In this document: in pieces, positions 8,301 through 62,292 of the stretch | How the letters are laid out: the number at the start of each line of letters is the position of its first letter | Position numbering within the stretch: the stretch's first letter is position 1 | From: Caldisericota bacterium | Lineage (GTDB): Bacteria; Caldisericota; JANLFM01 | Reading direction: 5' to 3' | Length of the DNA: 64,000 nt | NCBI GenBank assembly: GCA_024655865.1 | Contig: JANLFM010000002.1 | Span: 74,405 to 138,404, forward strand | The notes under the pieces: generated by a model | The model's input: only the letters and a program-made list of their open reading frames with translations | Database searches by the model: none | What the model was told of the DNA's origin: nothing | Position numbers and translations under genes: made by a program

Positions 8301-8374
8301 TGGGGAGTCGTCTAGTGGTAGGACAGCAGACTCTGGATCTGCGAGCGGTGGTTCGAGTCCATCCTCCCCAGCCA
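8301..8374 (+). tRNA. tRNA-Gln (anticodon CUG)
   Basis: Hand-folded cloverleaf: acceptor TGGGGAG/CTCCCCA, D-stem GTCT/GGAC, anticodon stem GCAGA/TCTGC with loop CTCTGGA (U33, anticodon CTG), T-loop TTCGAGT, discriminator G, encoded CCA. Confidence 0.85.
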
Positions 8375-11605: not shown

Positions 11606-11900
11606 CTTTTTTGAAATAAAAAAGAGCCGCCCTCTTATGGAGGGCGGCTCTTTTAAACCGCGGTGCCACCTCAATTGGATCCTTAAACGGAATCCCACTC
11701 ATTTCCGGATACGGAGACCAAAAGTCTCTATATATCCTCCCCTTTTAACGGCGGGTTCCCGTCAGAGCCTACTTGTTTGCTTTCGGCCCTGCAACTCCTG
11801 GGTCCATTCGGTCGCTCCTTGCAATATCGGGCTTACACTATCCCCGACTCGCTGAATTGCCGGTGCTGCGCTTACTAGTCCCAATCATCGCCTTTAAAAA
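11606..11900 (-). promoter_or_regulatory. T-box riboswitch leader (probably tRNA-Trp-sensing) with intrinsic terminator; TTGACA-18-ATAATT promoter at 11913-11942
   Basis: Minus strand carries a GA/K-turn motif (GCGATGA...AGTAAGCG) and the T-box sequence AATTGAGGTGGCACCGCGG (UGGC bulge; 11649-11669). A perfect 11-bp stem GAGCCGCCCTC/GAGGGCGGCTC is followed by TTTTTT (11606-11641). A GAA-TGG-A candidate specifier sits in a purine-rich loop. Confidence 0.75.
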
Positions 11901-53851: not shown

Positions 53852-55381
53852 TTAAAAGCGATGAGAATTAATCTCCCTGTAAACCCTTTCCAGGGAAAAG
53901 TAAAGGGACTGATAAGAAGCGAAAAGCCGATCGTAAATTAAGAAATTTTCCGGGTGGGGGGAGTAGGAGCTTTTAATTCTTAAAAGGTTCTTTACTTCAG
54001 AGAAGCTTTTGCACACCCCCAGGCCCACGGCCACGCACATGGCCGCTCCTATTGCTCCAGCAATCTCCGGATGCTCTGGAACCTCGATCCTTTTTTTAGT
54101 GACATCGGAAATGATTTGCATCCACTCGGGGTTCAGGGCTCCCCCACCGATCACTTTTAAAACAGGAGGGTCGAATCCAAAATCCCGTTTATAGTTCTCC
54201 AGGATCCACCTCAGGTTATAGGCTACTCCCTCATAAGCCGCCTTCACCAAATGGCCTCTTTTGTGTTCGGGACCGATGTTGAACATAGTAGAACGGGTTG
54301 TGGTAGTGCTCACCGGGCAACGTTCCCCATAAATCCAGGGGGTGAGGATCAGGCAATCGGAGCCAGCAGGGACCTTCTTTGCCTCCTCGTTTAAAAAGGC
54401 GTAAATATCGGGGATATCAGGGTCATGGAGCTCCTTGCTGTAGAATTCCTCAATGATCCACTTGAGCACCGAACCCGCGGATTCCGTGATTCCCACCAGG
54501 ATATTCATCTCCGGGTCCGCGCTCTGGAGGCAAGCGGCGCCGTGCTTAAACTTCAGGTCGCGTCTCGTGGAAACACCCACCCAGGCAGAAGTGCCCAAAT
54601 AAATGTGAGCTTCTCCCTCCTCCACGGCGCTCGAGCCCACGGTAGCGCTCTGAGTGTCGTCACATCCCCCCACTACTGGTGTGCCTTCCTTTAAACCCAT
54701 GGCCTCTGCCGCTTCCTTAGTGAGTCCGCCCACTACGTCTATGGAGCGCACAAGTGGGGGAAGTTTTGCCGTATCTATACCCGCGGCCTTGAAGAAAATC
54801 CGCAACCAATCCTTTTTCTTCAAATCAAAACCGTAAGAGCTGGCCCCCGACCACTCCGCCACCTTCTTTCCCGTAGATTTGAACTTCAGGTAACCGTTTA
54901 CGTCCAGAAAATACTCCGTTTTCTCGTATATCTGGTGTTCTTCCTCTTTGATCCAGAGGAGCTTGGGAATTACGTCCTTTCCCGTAAGCTTGATCCCTAC
55001 GAAGCTTTTGAACACCTCCTCGCCCAGGAACTTCTTCATGATCTTCCGGGCTTGCTTTTCCGCTCTGCCGTCCACCCAGGTGATATTTAGCCGTAGCACG
55101 TTCCCCCCTTTGTCCACCGGGATGATTCCCATAGCCTGAGTAGTGTAAGCGATTCCTAAAACCTCTTCCGGGGAAATTCCGGATTTCTCCATAATCTCTC
55201 TGGTGGTTTTTACAATTGCTTTCCAGTAGTCCTCAGGATCCTGTTCCGCCCAATTCGGATGAGGGTTATAAAGTGGATAAAATTCCGTGGCATGTGAGAT
55301 AATCGATCCTTCCACATCAAAAAGAGCGGCTTTGGTACTGCTCGTCCCTACGTCGTGAGCGATTATATACTTCGTCTTCAT
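53852..55381 (-). CDS. FGGY-family carbohydrate kinase (xylulo-/fuculo-/rhamnulokinase-like)
   Basis: YIIAHDVGTSSTKAALFD N-terminus and FGGY C-terminal motifs; 509 aa. Confidence 0.85.
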   Translation of the reverse strand: MKTKYIIAHDVGTSSTKAALFDVEGSIISHATEFYPLYNPHPNWAEQDPEDYWKAIVKTTREIMEKSGISPEEVLGIAYTTQAMGIIPVDKGGNVLRLNITWVDGRAEKQARKIMKKFLGEEVFKSFVGIKLTGKDVIPKLLWIKEEEHQIYEKTEYFLDVNGYLKFKSTGKKVAEWSGASSYGFDLKKKDWLRIFFKAAGIDTAKLPPLVRSIDVVGGLTKEAAEAMGLKEGTPVVGGCDDTQSATVGSSAVEEGEAHIYLGTSAWVGVSTRRDLKFKHGAACLQSADPEMNILVGITESAGSVLKWIIEEFYSKELHDPDIPDIYAFLNEEAKKVPAGSDCLILTPWIYGERCPVSTTTTRSTMFNIGPEHKRGHLVKAAYEGVAYNLRWILENYKRDFGFDPPVLKVIGGGALNPEWMQIISDVTKKRIEVPEHPEIAGAIGAAMCVAVGLGVCKSFSEVKNLLRIKSSYSPHPENFLIYDRLFASYQSLYFSLERVYREINSHRF

Positions 55382-56156: not shown

Positions 56157-57614
56157 ATGGAAAAGGAAGGATACGCTATTTCCAGATGGGAAGAGCCCGA
56201 TGAGGTTTACCGAAAGCTCAATGAACTGGTAAAACAGCCCGTAAGGCGCATAAAGCATGAGGTCATGAACGCCTACCTGGAATATTTCAATTCCAGGTGC
56301 GCGGGCTCCAGAAAAATCGTCGAGGAAGCCAAAAATTACATTCCTGGAGGCGTGCAACACAATCTGGCTTTCAACTACCCTTTCCCTCTCGTGATTGAGA
56401 AAGCGGAGGGCGCTTACCTCTGGGATATTGACGGAAATAAATACATAGATTTCCTGCAGGCTGGTGGGCCCACTATTTTAGGAAGCAATTATGCGCCAGT
56501 TCGAGAGAAAGTGATTGAACTCCTCCAGACCTGTGGACCGGTTACGGGGCTCTTCCACGAGTATGAGCTTAAATTGGCCCAGCTGATCAACAAGTATATG
56601 CCCTCCGTGGAAATGTTCCGCATGTTAGGAAGCGGTACCGAGGCCGTGATGGCTGCGCTCAGGATTGCTCGCCTGGCAACGGGAAAAACCAAGGTGATCA
56701 AGATCGGTGGAGCCTATCACGGATGGAGCGACCAGATGGTCTACGGCCTCCATGTCCCCGGAACTGGAAGGTATGAGGCCCACGGCATTCCTAAGAGCTG
56801 TACCCGGCATACCCAGGAAGTCCCTCCCAACGATATCCACGCTTTAGAGCGAAAGCTCAAGATGAACCGCCTGAGGGGGGGGACAGCAGCTGTAATCGTG
56901 GAACCTCTGGGGCCGGAAAGCGGGACCAGGCCGGTGTACAAGGATTACAACAAACAGGTCAGGGAACTCTGCGATAAGTATGGTGCTTTGCTCATCTTCG
57001 ACGAGGTAGTCACAGGATTCCGGGTTGGGTTAGGAGGGGCTCAAGGATACTTTGGGGTCAAACCCGATTTAACCATCTTCGGAAAAATAGTTGCCGGAGG
57101 TTATCCCGGAGCAGGAGGAGTAGGCGGGAAAAGGGAACTGATCAAACTTCTTGCGGCGGGAATCGAAAGCGGCAAAAAGAGGGCTTACGTAGGAGGAACG
57201 CTGGCCGCCAATCCCCTGAGCTCGCTTGCCGGGTATTACACCATTCTGGAAATTGAGAGGACCAAAGCCTGCGAAATTGCGGGAAGAGCCGGAGACAGGC
57301 TCACAAAGGGGTTAAGGAAGCTGATCGAGAAGTACAGGCTTCCTTACGTAGCCTATAACCATGGTTCCATCTGCCATCTGGAGACATCGGGAGCAATGTT
57401 CGTGAAGATCGACCTGCTCCACCTGAAGAAGTCCCTGAAGGACATCCACGAGCGCAAGTTTATGATGGAGGAAATGGGGGCCGCCTATATGGCTGAGGGG
57501 ATTATCACCCTCGCTGGGAGTAGAATGTACACCAGTCTCGCGGATACCGATGAGGTCATAGATGATGCCTTAAACAGGTTCGAACGAGTGTTCCAGAGCG
57601 TAGAAGGCGCCTAA
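56157..57614 (+). CDS. Class III PLP aminotransferase, glutamate-1-semialdehyde 2,1-aminomutase-like (start MEKEGY; ORF-track start 56112)
   Basis: GSGTEAVMAALRIAR and LIFDEVVTGFR...FGKIVAGG (Lys) motifs. GGAGGG RBS before ATG at 56157. Confidence 0.8.
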   Translation: MEKEGYAISRWEEPDEVYRKLNELVKQPVRRIKHEVMNAYLEYFNSRCAGSRKIVEEAKNYIPGGVQHNLAFNYPFPLVIEKAEGAYLWDIDGNKYIDFLQAGGPTILGSNYAPVREKVIELLQTCGPVTGLFHEYELKLAQLINKYMPSVEMFRMLGSGTEAVMAALRIARLATGKTKVIKIGGAYHGWSDQMVYGLHVPGTGRYEAHGIPKSCTRHTQEVPPNDIHALERKLKMNRLRGGTAAVIVEPLGPESGTRPVYKDYNKQVRELCDKYGALLIFDEVVTGFRVGLGGAQGYFGVKPDLTIFGKIVAGGYPGAGGVGGKRELIKLLAAGIESGKKRAYVGGTLAANPLSSLAGYYTILEIERTKACEIAGRAGDRLTKGLRKLIEKYRLPYVAYNHGSICHLETSGAMFVKIDLLHLKKSLKDIHERKFMMEEMGAAYMAEGIITLAGSRMYTSLADTDEVIDDALNRFERVFQSVEGA

Positions 57615-58956: not shown

Positions 58957-59568
58957 ATGGTCAAATTTTTTACTTTCCTTTCCGTTTTGGCTTGCCTGGT
59001 TTTACTGATTTCGGGCTGCGGAGGAACTCCATCCACGGAAAAAACTCCAAGTCCGACTTTATCGAGTTCTGAGACCGTTAAACCCACCCCCACGAAAACG
59101 ACGGAAATAATCACAGAAGGAGCAAAAAGGTTTGCCCTGGGCCAGTCCTTTGAGTATTCCAACGCTACCTTTACTTTTAAAAGCGCAGAGTTCATGGATA
59201 AGATTCCAGCTTACTTAGAGGAAAAGACTTATACGCCCAAGAACGGGAAGTATCTCGTGGTTTACTTCTCCTTTAAGGGAAACGAGCAGAATGAGGGAGG
59301 AGGAATAAATACGGACATCTTCCTCCTTCGGGACTCCCAGGGAAGAAATTATCAGATGTCCTCGGATCTTAGGAATTACGAGGACAACGATTTGGCTATG
59401 GAAAAGAAGATGCAAGTTCCGGGCATGCTTTTGTGGAATCAGGAAAATGAAGAAGATTCCCTCCTGGTTTATGACGTTCCCACAGACGCCTCCGGGTTCA
59501 CGATGAACATCATTTACGCGGAAGGAAAGCTCATAAAGACCTTCGCCATTATAGACCTGAGATTGTAA
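58957..59568 (+). CDS. Lipoprotein, hypothetical (DUF4352-like)
   Basis: Lipobox LISGCGG after signal peptide; 203 aa. Confidence 0.5.
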   Translation: MVKFFTFLSVLACLVLLISGCGGTPSTEKTPSPTLSSSETVKPTPTKTTEIITEGAKRFALGQSFEYSNATFTFKSAEFMDKIPAYLEEKTYTPKNGKYLVVYFSFKGNEQNEGGGINTDIFLLRDSQGRNYQMSSDLRNYEDNDLAMEKKMQVPGMLLWNQENEEDSLLVYDVPTDASGFTMNIIYAEGKLIKTFAIIDLRL

Positions 59569-59600
59569 AACAAAAGAAGGGATCATTAAGGAGTTCAGGA

Positions 59601-60137
59601 ATAAATTTCCCTTACTTAGCTAAAACGCCTGGTTCGGAAAGAAAGATCCTGATCACTGGACCTCCCGGTTGCGGAAAGACCACGCTGATTAAAGAGCTCC
59701 ACAGCCGCTTTCCTGACTTTTGTGGTTTCTGGACGGAAGAAATAAGAGAAAGAGGAGTCCGCACGGGCTTCCAGATCGTCACTACCTGGGGCGAAAGATT
59801 TCCTCTTTCTTCGGTCTACTCCTCATCACCTTTCCGCGTGGGAAAATACGGGGTGGAGGTGGAAAACATTAATCTGGTGACTCAAAAGTTGTGGGGACTT
59901 CTTGGGGAGGGAAAACGGAGTTTCCTCATAGACGAAATTGGAAAAATGGAATATTTTTCCCGGGAGTTTCGAGAATTGATCAGGGAATTGTTCCATAATC
60001 CGGAAACAAGGCTTATTGCCACTATTGCAGAGAAGGACTTTCACCCGGAAATCAAAGTTTTAAAGGAAAAAGGGGAATTATATTATCTTACGCGCAAAAA
60101 TTTTGACGAGGTACTTTCCAAGGTCCTGAGATTCTGA
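59601..60137 (+). CDS. Nucleoside-triphosphatase THEP1-family (PF03266-like). No canonical start codon; ORF-track call 59838 is an internal fragment
   Basis: Frame open from 59580; Walker A KILITGPPGCGKTT at 59643-59684; continuous with the 99-aa ORF. TAAGGAG RBS at 59587-59593 but the nearest in-frame codons are ATA/ATC/CTG. Confidence 0.55.
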   Translation: MNFPYLAKTPGSERKILITGPPGCGKTTLIKELHSRFPDFCGFWTEEIRERGVRTGFQIVTTWGERFPLSSVYSSSPFRVGKYGVEVENINLVTQKLWGLLGEGKRSFLIDEIGKMEYFSREFRELIRELFHNPETRLIATIAEKDFHPEIKVLKEKGELYYLTRKNFDEVLSKVLRF

Positions 60138-60286
60138 TTTGCTTGAAAAGCCCAAAAGATATCTAAAATTGGCCTTCTCGAAATTACTCAAAAATGGCTC
60201 CAACCTGCACACGAGAATTAGAAAGCTACGGGAAATGATGTGGTATTTCTTGCTAAAAAATTTCCCGTCTACCATTCTGTATATTT

Positions 60287-62139
60287 TTGAGCATAATATT
60301 CAGCATAAATAAGCGAAGAGAGATGTTCGAAGAAATCAAGGAGGGCAAGAATAAACAATCAGCAAGAAGGGCAGGCGTAGGAGTCTTTATCTCCTGGTTC
60401 GCCATTTTGCTCGTGGTATGGTTCCTCAACCCTAAACTCTTCCATCTTCTCTCTGTTATTTACTGCATAATAATAGCCTTCGGTATTTACACGGTGGCCT
60501 GGAACTCGAGGCAGCGTTTGGAGGCCAATCCCCTCCTGCTGTTGGGGGTTGCTTTCTTCTTTGTTGCCGTCTTTGACCTGCTCCATATTTTTGCCTCCGA
60601 GGACTTAGCGCTTATGAATTTTTCGGGCGCAAATATCTCCTGGCAATTCTGGCTAGTAGCCAGGTATCTTCAGGCTGTCTCTCTTTTAATAATTCCTTTT
60701 TTCGGGACGCGCAGGTCCAGCCTACCGATCTTGTTTCCAGTTTACCTCCTGGTTTCCCTCGTTCTTTTCCTCGCTATTTACTTATGGAAATTCTTCCCCC
60801 CTTCTGTTGTGGATAGCGGGGGTATAACTTTGTTTGCCGAATGGAGCGTCTATTCTCACATTGCTCTCATGGGCATTTATCTTTTCTTCTTTTTAGTTTG
60901 GCACAAAAAGATATCTAAAGCCCTCTTTTTCTTACCACTCCTATTTGTCCTCTTCCTACTTATTTCGGAAACTTGCTTCCTGATCTTTCCTATGAATTCG
61001 GAGTATTTCTCCCTCTCAATTCATTCTTCACAATTAGTCGCCTACTGTTTCCTCTACCTGGCAATGGTCGTTTCCGCGATTCAATATCCTTTTGATACCC
61101 TTTATCACAATTTGAAAGAAAGCGAAGAAAAATACCGATCTTTAGTTGAAAATATGGCAGATGGAGTAATTCTTATCGATGAAGGAGGAAAAGTGGTCTT
61201 TGCCAATCCTCAGGCGGAAAGGATATTTGATGTGCCCCAAGGAACTTTAGTGAATCGCTCAATTTATGATTTTTGCTCAGATTGGAGGAAGGAAAACCAG
61301 AATTACCCCCCCCCCCCCAGAAAAGAATGGAAACGGAAATTATTTGCAGCAACGGTACCAAAAAGATCCTCAGCATGGCATCTACTCTCATCCCTGACCA
61401 GAAAGGAGTACGCCATCAAACCCTTCTTATTGTAGAAGATATCACTAAACGGAAAAGAGCCGAAGAATGGAAAGCCGACTTCACCCGGGCAGTGGCCCAC
61501 GATATCGCGAACCCTCTTTCCGCAGTCAGGGCTGCTTTGGAGCTTTATTCATATCGAAAATTAGGAGATCCCACTGCTGAGGAATACCTGGAAACTGCCA
61601 AATTAAATATTGAGAGAATCGCAAACCTTATTTCCAATTTATCCTTTTCCGTAGATCTTGCTCTAAATAGAGAAAAAGAGAGAAGTCCAATAAAATTAGA
61701 TGCTCTTCTTGCCCGGATTCATAAAGCTCTTGCACCCCTCTTCCAGAGAAAGGGTGTTGAGTTTAATTTAAAAATCGATAATGGAGAAATTCAGGTGCTA
61801 GCCAACGAAAATCTGGAAAGGGCTATTGGAAATATCCTGGATAATGCCTTAAAGTTCACACCCGAAGGAGGCAGAGTTGAGGTTTCCTTGAGAAAAGAAG
61901 GAGAGAAGGCCCTGATCACAATTAGCGATACCGGTACGGGGATTTCTCGCCATGATCTACCGCACATCTTCGAGCGCTTTTACAAGGGAGAGAGCGCTCA
62001 CACCGGAACGGGATTGGGGCTCTACACAGTTAAGCTCACGATCGAGGAACACGGTGGAGAGATTTCCGTAGAAAGTGAGCCGGGGAAAGGAAGCAAATTC
62101 TCCATTTCCCTCCCGCTTCTTTTAAAGAGTTCAGGTTAA
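60287..62139 (+). pseudogene. Sensor histidine kinase (membrane MASE-like domain + PAS + HisKA + HATPase_c) split by a frameshift in a C13 homopolymer at 61306-61318
   Basis: ORF 60287..61435 ends inside the PAS domain. ORF 61273..62139 (frame -1) continues PAS then HisKA (AHDIANPL) and HATPase (DTGTGI, GTGLGL). One extra C (or -2) restores a single ~615-aa ORF. Confidence 0.7.
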
Positions 62140-62257: not shown

Positions 62258-62292
62258 AAAAGGGGCGGACGAACCGCCCCTTCTGAATTTTA
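62258..62292 (-). terminator. Intrinsic terminator (GGGGCGG-ACGAA-CCGCCCC) serving the minus-strand moaD/AOR operon
   Basis: 7-bp GC stem followed on the minus strand by TTTTTGTTTT. Confidence 0.6.

Follow-up and report, generated by a model that had tools for sequence, protein, structure and literature searches.

A sensor kinase gene divided between two reading frames

We analysed a 64,000-nucleotide stretch of DNA, hereafter the window, from an assembly assigned to a Caldisericota bacterium (GenBank GCA_024655865.1, contig JANLFM010000002.1, positions 74,405 to 138,404). Our subject is a gene for a predicted sensor histidine kinase that is divided here between two open reading frames (ORFs) and that carries, within its coding sequence, an uninterrupted run of 13 C residues (C13, positions 61306-61318 of the forward strand), which a direct reading of the window confirms as first annotated. 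The upstream ORF extends on the forward strand from an ATG at 60323, or alternatively from a TTG at 60287, to 61435; it encodes a MASE3 domain and the first half of a PAS domain and stops 117 nt past the tract in the wrong frame. The downstream ORF (61273-62139, forward strand) supplies the second half of the PAS domain, a HisKA domain with the phospho-acceptor histidine and a HATPase_c domain. Adding one C or removing two joins both parts into a single ORF of 605 or 604 amino acids from the ATG, or of 617 or 616 from the TTG, so that the fused kinase of about 615 residues proposed in the first-pass annotation holds, its exact size depending on the start codon.

When the frame is repaired, Pfam recognizes MASE3 (146.7 bits), one PAS domain (residues 269-379), HisKA (39 bits) and HATPase_c (103.9 bits), the scores of the latter two both exceeding the Pfam cut-offs. 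The frameshift had been thought to leave a PAS domain on either side of it; instead, a single PAS domain is cut in two, and positions 1-113 of the PAS profile are matched only by the repaired or intact alleles, the upstream product as it stands covering positions 1-49 only. Residues H393, N504, D536, G538, G562 and G564 are near-invariant in the alignment of homologues, and the predicted gene product is a two-component sensor histidine kinase of the HisKA class with MASE3 and PAS input. A phmmer search of all ORFs of at least 80 amino acids in the 64 kb with the CheY, PhoB and Spo0F receivers found no response regulator at E < 1e-3, and no other kinase was detected in the window. Orphan kinases are common, so the absence of a nearby regulator has no bearing on the identity of the kinase.

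Close relatives of this protein are few. A collection of 5.8 billion proteins holds only two clusters of at least 94% identity, followed by a next match at 28%, and the kinase therefore appears specific to one species-level lineage; no orthologues were found outside it in the protein collection or among the contig-scan matches listed, where the next best proteins share 28-31% identity. An exact look-up of the 288-residue ORF of the window gave no match because gene callers had taken a later start. This gene is entered either as two proteins, MCR4432741.1 and MCR4432742.1 ("PAS domain-containing protein" and "HAMP domain-containing histidine kinase"), or as one, the "MASE3 domain-containing protein" MDI6868241.1, and users of metagenome-assembled genomes (MAGs) should be warned that the gene appears as two proteins in some of them and as one in others. 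Names differ at a higher level as well: the same lineage, at about 98% nucleotide identity, is entered as Caldiserica/Caldisericota in one NCBI MAG record and as Coprothermobacterota in another. We also considered separate translation of the kinase half and rejected it, since no start codon is suitably spaced from the sole Shine-Dalgarno-like sequence, GGAGGA (61284-61289).

The C tract is the sole homopolymer longer than eight in the 64-kb window, where the other maxima are C6, one G8 and one T8, and the number of C runs of at least 13 expected by chance lies between about 0.0008 (independent bases) and 0.012 (first-order Markov model). Codon usage does not account for it, because CCC makes up only 40% of the proline codons in the window and the sole other PPPP is written CCTCCTCCACCC. 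In the intact allele, the tract encodes PPPP at residues 329-332. It lies 31 nt downstream of a second variable homopolymer of the gene, a run of five T residues (T5, 61270-61274, forward strand) that is T6 in all intact alleles and in all other clades. The 31 nt between the two runs (61275-61305, forward strand) read LLRLEEGKPEL in T6+C13 alleles and would read CSDWRKENQNY in T5+C14 or T5+C11 alleles; Pfam does not tell which reading of these 11 residues is native (44.4 versus 44.5 bits).

An AlphaFold2 model of the intact allele (mean predicted local distance difference test score, pLDDT, 72.6) represents the MASE3 region poorly and the PAS and kinase cores well, mostly above 85-90 overall and at 85-98 in the kinase core. 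Between residues 321 and 330, confidence falls to a pLDDT of about 52. In the protein, F317/L318 mark the T-run, residues 318-328 form the frame-dependent segment, and the strand that follows PPPP spans residues 336-341. According to the model, the intervening segment and the tract code for the PAS-domain loop under least constraint, between a helical segment and the next strand, and such a position fits a tolerance both of length changes between PPP and PPPP and of the alternative 11-residue reading.

The C tract and the T-run across assemblies

The window is 100% identical to the JGI metagenome contig Ga0417229_000185 (L002), and exact look-up of neighbouring and cluster proteins yielded 12 further assemblies of the locus, whose loci are given L-numbers here. 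These 13 independent assemblies represent one species-level lineage and at least 10 samples, and all are consensus sequences rather than reads. The kinase gene is in frame in four of them, out of frame in eight, and broken at the tract in one. All four in-frame alleles are T6+C13: those of L170 and L171, that of a third contig with P0124, and that of L003, which is NCBI GCA_030018195.1 and in which the gene is annotated as one protein of 605 residues. The out-of-frame alleles comprise T6+C14 (L001, L172), T6+C12 (L175), T6+C11 (L173, L176, L007), T5+C13 (the window, L002) and T5 with an interrupted 10-nt tract, C8AC (L174). In JGI 3300001095 the sequence breaks within the tract, L088 ending with nine Cs and L004 starting with eight.

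Differences in tract length are found between sequences that are otherwise identical. L001 and L003 show no mismatch in 20,228 nt and differ solely by C14 versus C13; the same sole difference, C13 versus C14, separates L170 from L172 over 12,876 nt without mismatch; and L171 and L173, again without mismatch over 8,186 nt, differ only by the 2 nt between C13 and C11. L176 equals L170 and L172 across its 1,354 nt except at the tract, and one haplotype occurs with C11, C13 and C14 in SRR29054603, SRR29054604 and SRR29054607, which have neighbouring accession numbers. In-frame and out-of-frame lengths thus occur on the same haplotype at the level of consensus, from which the direction of change is not readable. 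Across the three identical-haplotype pairs, three tract changes stand against no substitution in about 41 kb, which would place the rate of tract change at least 1,000-fold above the per-base substitution rate, a value that technical error could inflate. An excess of this size would fit the range reported for simple sequence repeat loci, at which local mutation is typically 100- to 10,000-fold above the basal rate (PMC11868660).

The comparison with other strains that had been proposed as a check on the first-pass annotation gave a divided answer: tract length does vary, and what sets the window apart from the intact alleles is the T-run. The 605-residue alleles of L003, L170 and L171 also have C13, and a single T lacking from the window is what separates it from them. 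The earlier view that the C13 tract causes the shift is therefore not supported, and judged against the intact alleles the frame error of the window would be T5 in place of T6. The window sequence alone could not locate the shift at the C tract, because any +1 change within 61273-61435 would fuse the two ORFs; an obvious homopolymer need not be the lesion, which here lies 31 nt away. T5 recurs in the independent assembly L174, and single-nucleotide polymorphisms (SNPs) common to the window and L174 flank the T-run on both sides, which makes T5 an inherited clade marker. Among these alleles the gene is in frame where the summed length of T-run and C tract leaves a remainder of 1 on division by 3. 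By this rule, the register of the window's clade would be shifted, such that C14 or C11 rather than C13 would be the "on" length.

Proposed slippage switching and its alternatives

The first-pass annotation had left three options for the tract, namely a phase-variable switch, a true pseudogene or a sequencing error. We favour, with slightly better than even confidence, the view that the tract is real, prone to slippage and phase-variable in its behaviour, in the manner of bvgS and flgS. This reading draws on tract lengths of 11 to 14 on identical or near-identical haplotypes in independent assemblies, on an otherwise intact gene and on purifying selection. The tract has several properties of a contingency locus: it is polymorphic in length while its flanks are unchanged (in assembly consensus, not in reads), it is longer than composition predicts, and it lies within an ORF, so that its length alters the frame. 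No other stop or indel interrupts the kinase in any strain (seven haplotypes). The ratio of non-synonymous to synonymous substitution rates (dN/dS) for the whole gene is 0.11-0.32 in all informative pairs (binomial p of 0.002 to 1e-15 against neutrality), it is low both upstream and downstream of the tract, and it may be set beside values of 0.04-0.24 in neighbouring genes. As a control, the N-terminal slice read out of frame gives 0.7-1.0, which is neutral-like. Because of these low ratios and the lack of a second lesion in any strain, the sequence comparison leaves an old pseudogene excluded.

In the mechanism we envisage, slipped-strand mispairing during replication would add Cs to the tract or remove them, and, the tract being within the ORF, a change of one or two bases would move the kinase core into or out of frame. 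The full 605-residue kinase would be made only when the combined length of the two runs satisfies the rule given above, and other lengths would yield no kinase but a MASE3 protein of 336-370 residues that includes half a PAS domain. Some of the cells could then have their signalling through this orphan kinase turned on or off by a change in the DNA, and changes by whole codons would be tolerated as variants of the PPPP stretch in the least constrained PAS loop. The window would represent an "off" allele, the T-run deletion in its clade having moved the register. We infer that the polymorphism has a biological and not a technical origin and that switching is reversible, frequent and useful to the organism.

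Several observations weigh against this reading. All data are consensus sequences from short-read metagenome assemblies, and long G/C homopolymers are prone to error both in sequencing and in library PCR. The two contigs L088 and L004 break at the tract, L001 and L003 may go back to one set of reads, and the compared loci contain no other homopolymer of at least nine bases as an internal control, the G8 of the window being stable but too short to serve. Both assemblies of the T5 clade are out of frame, and the expected "on" combinations T5+C14 and T5+C11 occur in none of the 13 assemblies; the overall in-frame share, 4 of 12, is that of random tract lengths. Finally, constraint is somewhat relaxed on the private branch of the window (omega about 0.36), where 10 changes are synonymous and 12 non-synonymous, compared with 21 and 6 on the branch of L007 (Fisher p = 0.036).

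If the tract lengths were technical, produced by miscalls, PCR stutter or assembler choices, the true tract would be C13 in all T6 strains with the kinase intact, and the window would hold a genuine T5 pseudogene, unless its C13 were a miscall for C14. C13 is indeed the modal length (5 of the 12 resolved assemblies), deviations are mostly of plus or minus one base, and single-base differences could be sequencing error; moreover, JGI 3300001095 has contig breaks at the tract or close to it, the sources are short-read, and the shortest tracts come in part from short contigs of probably low coverage (L176, 1,354 nt; L175, 4,172 nt). Yet C11 is also found on long contigs (L173, 67.6 kb; L007, 13.7 kb), and consensus lengths differ among runs with neighbouring accessions, probably of the same study and platform. 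The differences of 2 and 3 nt between otherwise identical haplotypes and the interrupted C8AC allele, which includes a substitution, cannot, to judge from the aligned sequences, be simple consensus miscalls, and errors are not to be expected at T5 versus T6, a difference that two datasets reproduce. We think a purely technical origin distinctly improbable. A poly-G artefact of NextSeq or NovaSeq instruments was rejected, since in 13 assemblies, drawn from several projects, the tract has coding sequence on either side.

A recent pseudogene is an explanation of another kind, in which the T6-to-T5 deletion killed the kinase in the window's clade and the C tract is a neutral hotspot without regulatory role. 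We regard it as unlikely, if deserving of serious weight. T5 marks a clade in two independent assemblies with shared flanking SNPs, both out of frame, and their tracts, of 13 and 10 nt, remain in the register that suits T6, as would follow from an origin of T5 on an in-frame allele without later compensation. The raised omega of the window branch and the shortened, interrupted tract of L174 point the same way, as do signs of gene decay in the lineage, with an adjacent NTPase gene that has lost its ATG start in the window's strain and independent nonsense mutations in a nearby FGGY kinase gene of other strains. The 23 kinase substitutions that separate the two T5 haplotypes nevertheless give a dN/dS of 0.27 (p = 0.002), and of 0.17 downstream of the shift, although both haplotypes are out of frame; the private branch of the window itself still departs from neutrality (p = 0.017), no second lesion has gathered, and the C-to-A interruption in L174 is synonymous in the T6 frame (CCC to CCA). 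This constraint could be accounted for by minority in-frame variants (T5+C14 or T5+C11), by recombination or by recoding at the tract. Under the last of these, out-of-frame alleles would be partly expressed, either because transcription slips on the 13-nt run or because ribosomes shift frame at a CCC/polyproline stall. Some bacteria rescue frameshifted genes through polymerase slippage at long homopolymers, and CCC-C is known to be prone to +1 shifts; the run exceeds the length of the RNA-DNA hybrid, PPPP is encoded on a perfectly slippery sequence, and recoding would agree with the purifying selection still seen in the T5 clade, neither of whose assemblies is in frame. We give recoding little credence all the same, as known transcriptional slippage occurs mostly on A/T runs and minority in-frame DNA variants explain selection in the T5 clade more simply. 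It is likewise a long shot that the tract acts as a two-register rheostat, DNA length setting the amount of full-length kinase through recoding and the kinase being functional even in the T5 clade, which would explain the selection that persists between the T5 haplotypes.

For the slippage switch that we favour, the closest precedent is bvgS of Bordetella pertussis, a sensor-kinase gene in which a change between C6 and C7 switches the virulence phase (described in PMC1891110 with reference to Stibitz et al., 1989). In both cases, a C run lies in the coding region of a two-component sensor kinase, and gain or loss of a single C shifts the frame and truncates the kinase, and populations contain mixed alleles. 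The tract studied here is about twice as long (11-14 versus 6-7) and is placed in a loop of the PAS domain, the homology of its orphan kinase, of MASE3-PAS-HisKA-HATPase_c architecture, to the BvgS-type hybrid kinase is limited to the kinase core, and the organism is an uncultured environmental bacterium known here from assemblies alone, unlike the host-restricted pathogen B. pertussis. A second parallel is offered by flgS/flgR of Campylobacter jejuni, where homopolymer slippage turns off a histidine kinase and its regulator (Hendrixson, 2006, 2008; PMC7677240), and where the frame is restored by second-site intragenic indels, which parallels the interplay of T-run and C tract proposed here (PMC7677240). 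The runs in C. jejuni are A/T runs of 7-8 bases, the output is the flagellar sigma-54 regulon and reversion was observed experimentally, whereas our case concerns a C run known from sequence only. More broadly, the locus resembles the poly-G/C contingency loci of Neisseria, Haemophilus, Campylobacter and Bordetella in having a G/C tract of at least eight bases within an ORF, a length that is polymorphic among close genomes, a gene that is otherwise intact and, probably, a local rate far above basal (PMC11868660; PMC1891110). Those loci mostly serve surface structures, restriction-modification systems and methyltransferases in host-adapted bacteria and usually occur as genome-wide sets, in contrast to the single regulator gene of an environmental lineage described here, with no second such tract in 64 kb.

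Almost all descriptions of homopolymer phase variation known to us concern pathogens that are cultured and host-adapted. In the present case, one haplotype with several tract lengths was found in a signalling gene of an uncultured environmental bacterium from public metagenome assemblies alone, and the points of interest are the environmental lineage, the targeting of a regulator rather than of a surface structure and the register set by two runs. Should reads bear the polymorphism out, the reach of contingency-type switching would include a regulator gene of a lineage that has been little studied, and samples could be compared by genotyping the locus.

Neighbouring genes

Directly upstream of the kinase lies a gene for an NTPase_1 protein (PF03266; 59625-60137, forward strand), whose ATG start has become ACG in the window's strain only. 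Its 170-codon frame is otherwise open and 96-98% identical to that of the strains with ATG; because of the ATG-to-ACG change, gene callers give only a 99-residue product from an internal GTG. The region from 58957 to 62139, which includes the kinase and an upstream gene for a putative lipoprotein of 203 amino acids, shows a synonymous divergence (dS) of 0.07-0.24 between strains, while the flanking genes for an aldehyde:ferredoxin oxidoreductase and an aminotransferase show 0.01-0.08, and mosaic SNP patterns between clades suggest a local hotspot of divergence or recombination. Downstream, between the stop codon of the kinase and a convergent ThiS-like gene, a GC-rich hairpin with T tails on both strands (62258-62284) is likely to be a bidirectional terminator, as judged by a consensus match only.

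The second-longest G/C homopolymer of the window is the G8 at 56875-56882, in frame within the gene for a class-III aminotransferase. L170, L171 and L172 carry the run unchanged, and in L001 and L003 it is absent (shorter than 7). The only Rfam matches above the gathering score in the window are a T-box leader (11637-11897, reverse strand; 118 bits) and a tRNA gene (8301-8371, forward strand). A gene for an FGGY carbohydrate kinase (about 53852-55380, reverse strand) is intact in the window and carries premature stops elsewhere: a TAA in L170 and L172 (668-670 in L170) and a TAG in L171 (83-85), where the window has TCG (54470-54472). These differing stops point to independent inactivation of the gene within the lineage. 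We considered whether the split FGGY gene in L170-L172 was a sign of error-prone assembly and rejected this, as the stops were made by substitutions and not by homopolymer indels. Gene content also differs downstream of the locus, where L170 and L172 have a gene for a 214-residue hydrolase of the HAD family (11550-12194 in L170) and L171, L001 and L003 have only a 47-residue ORF at the same position (11550-11693 in L171).

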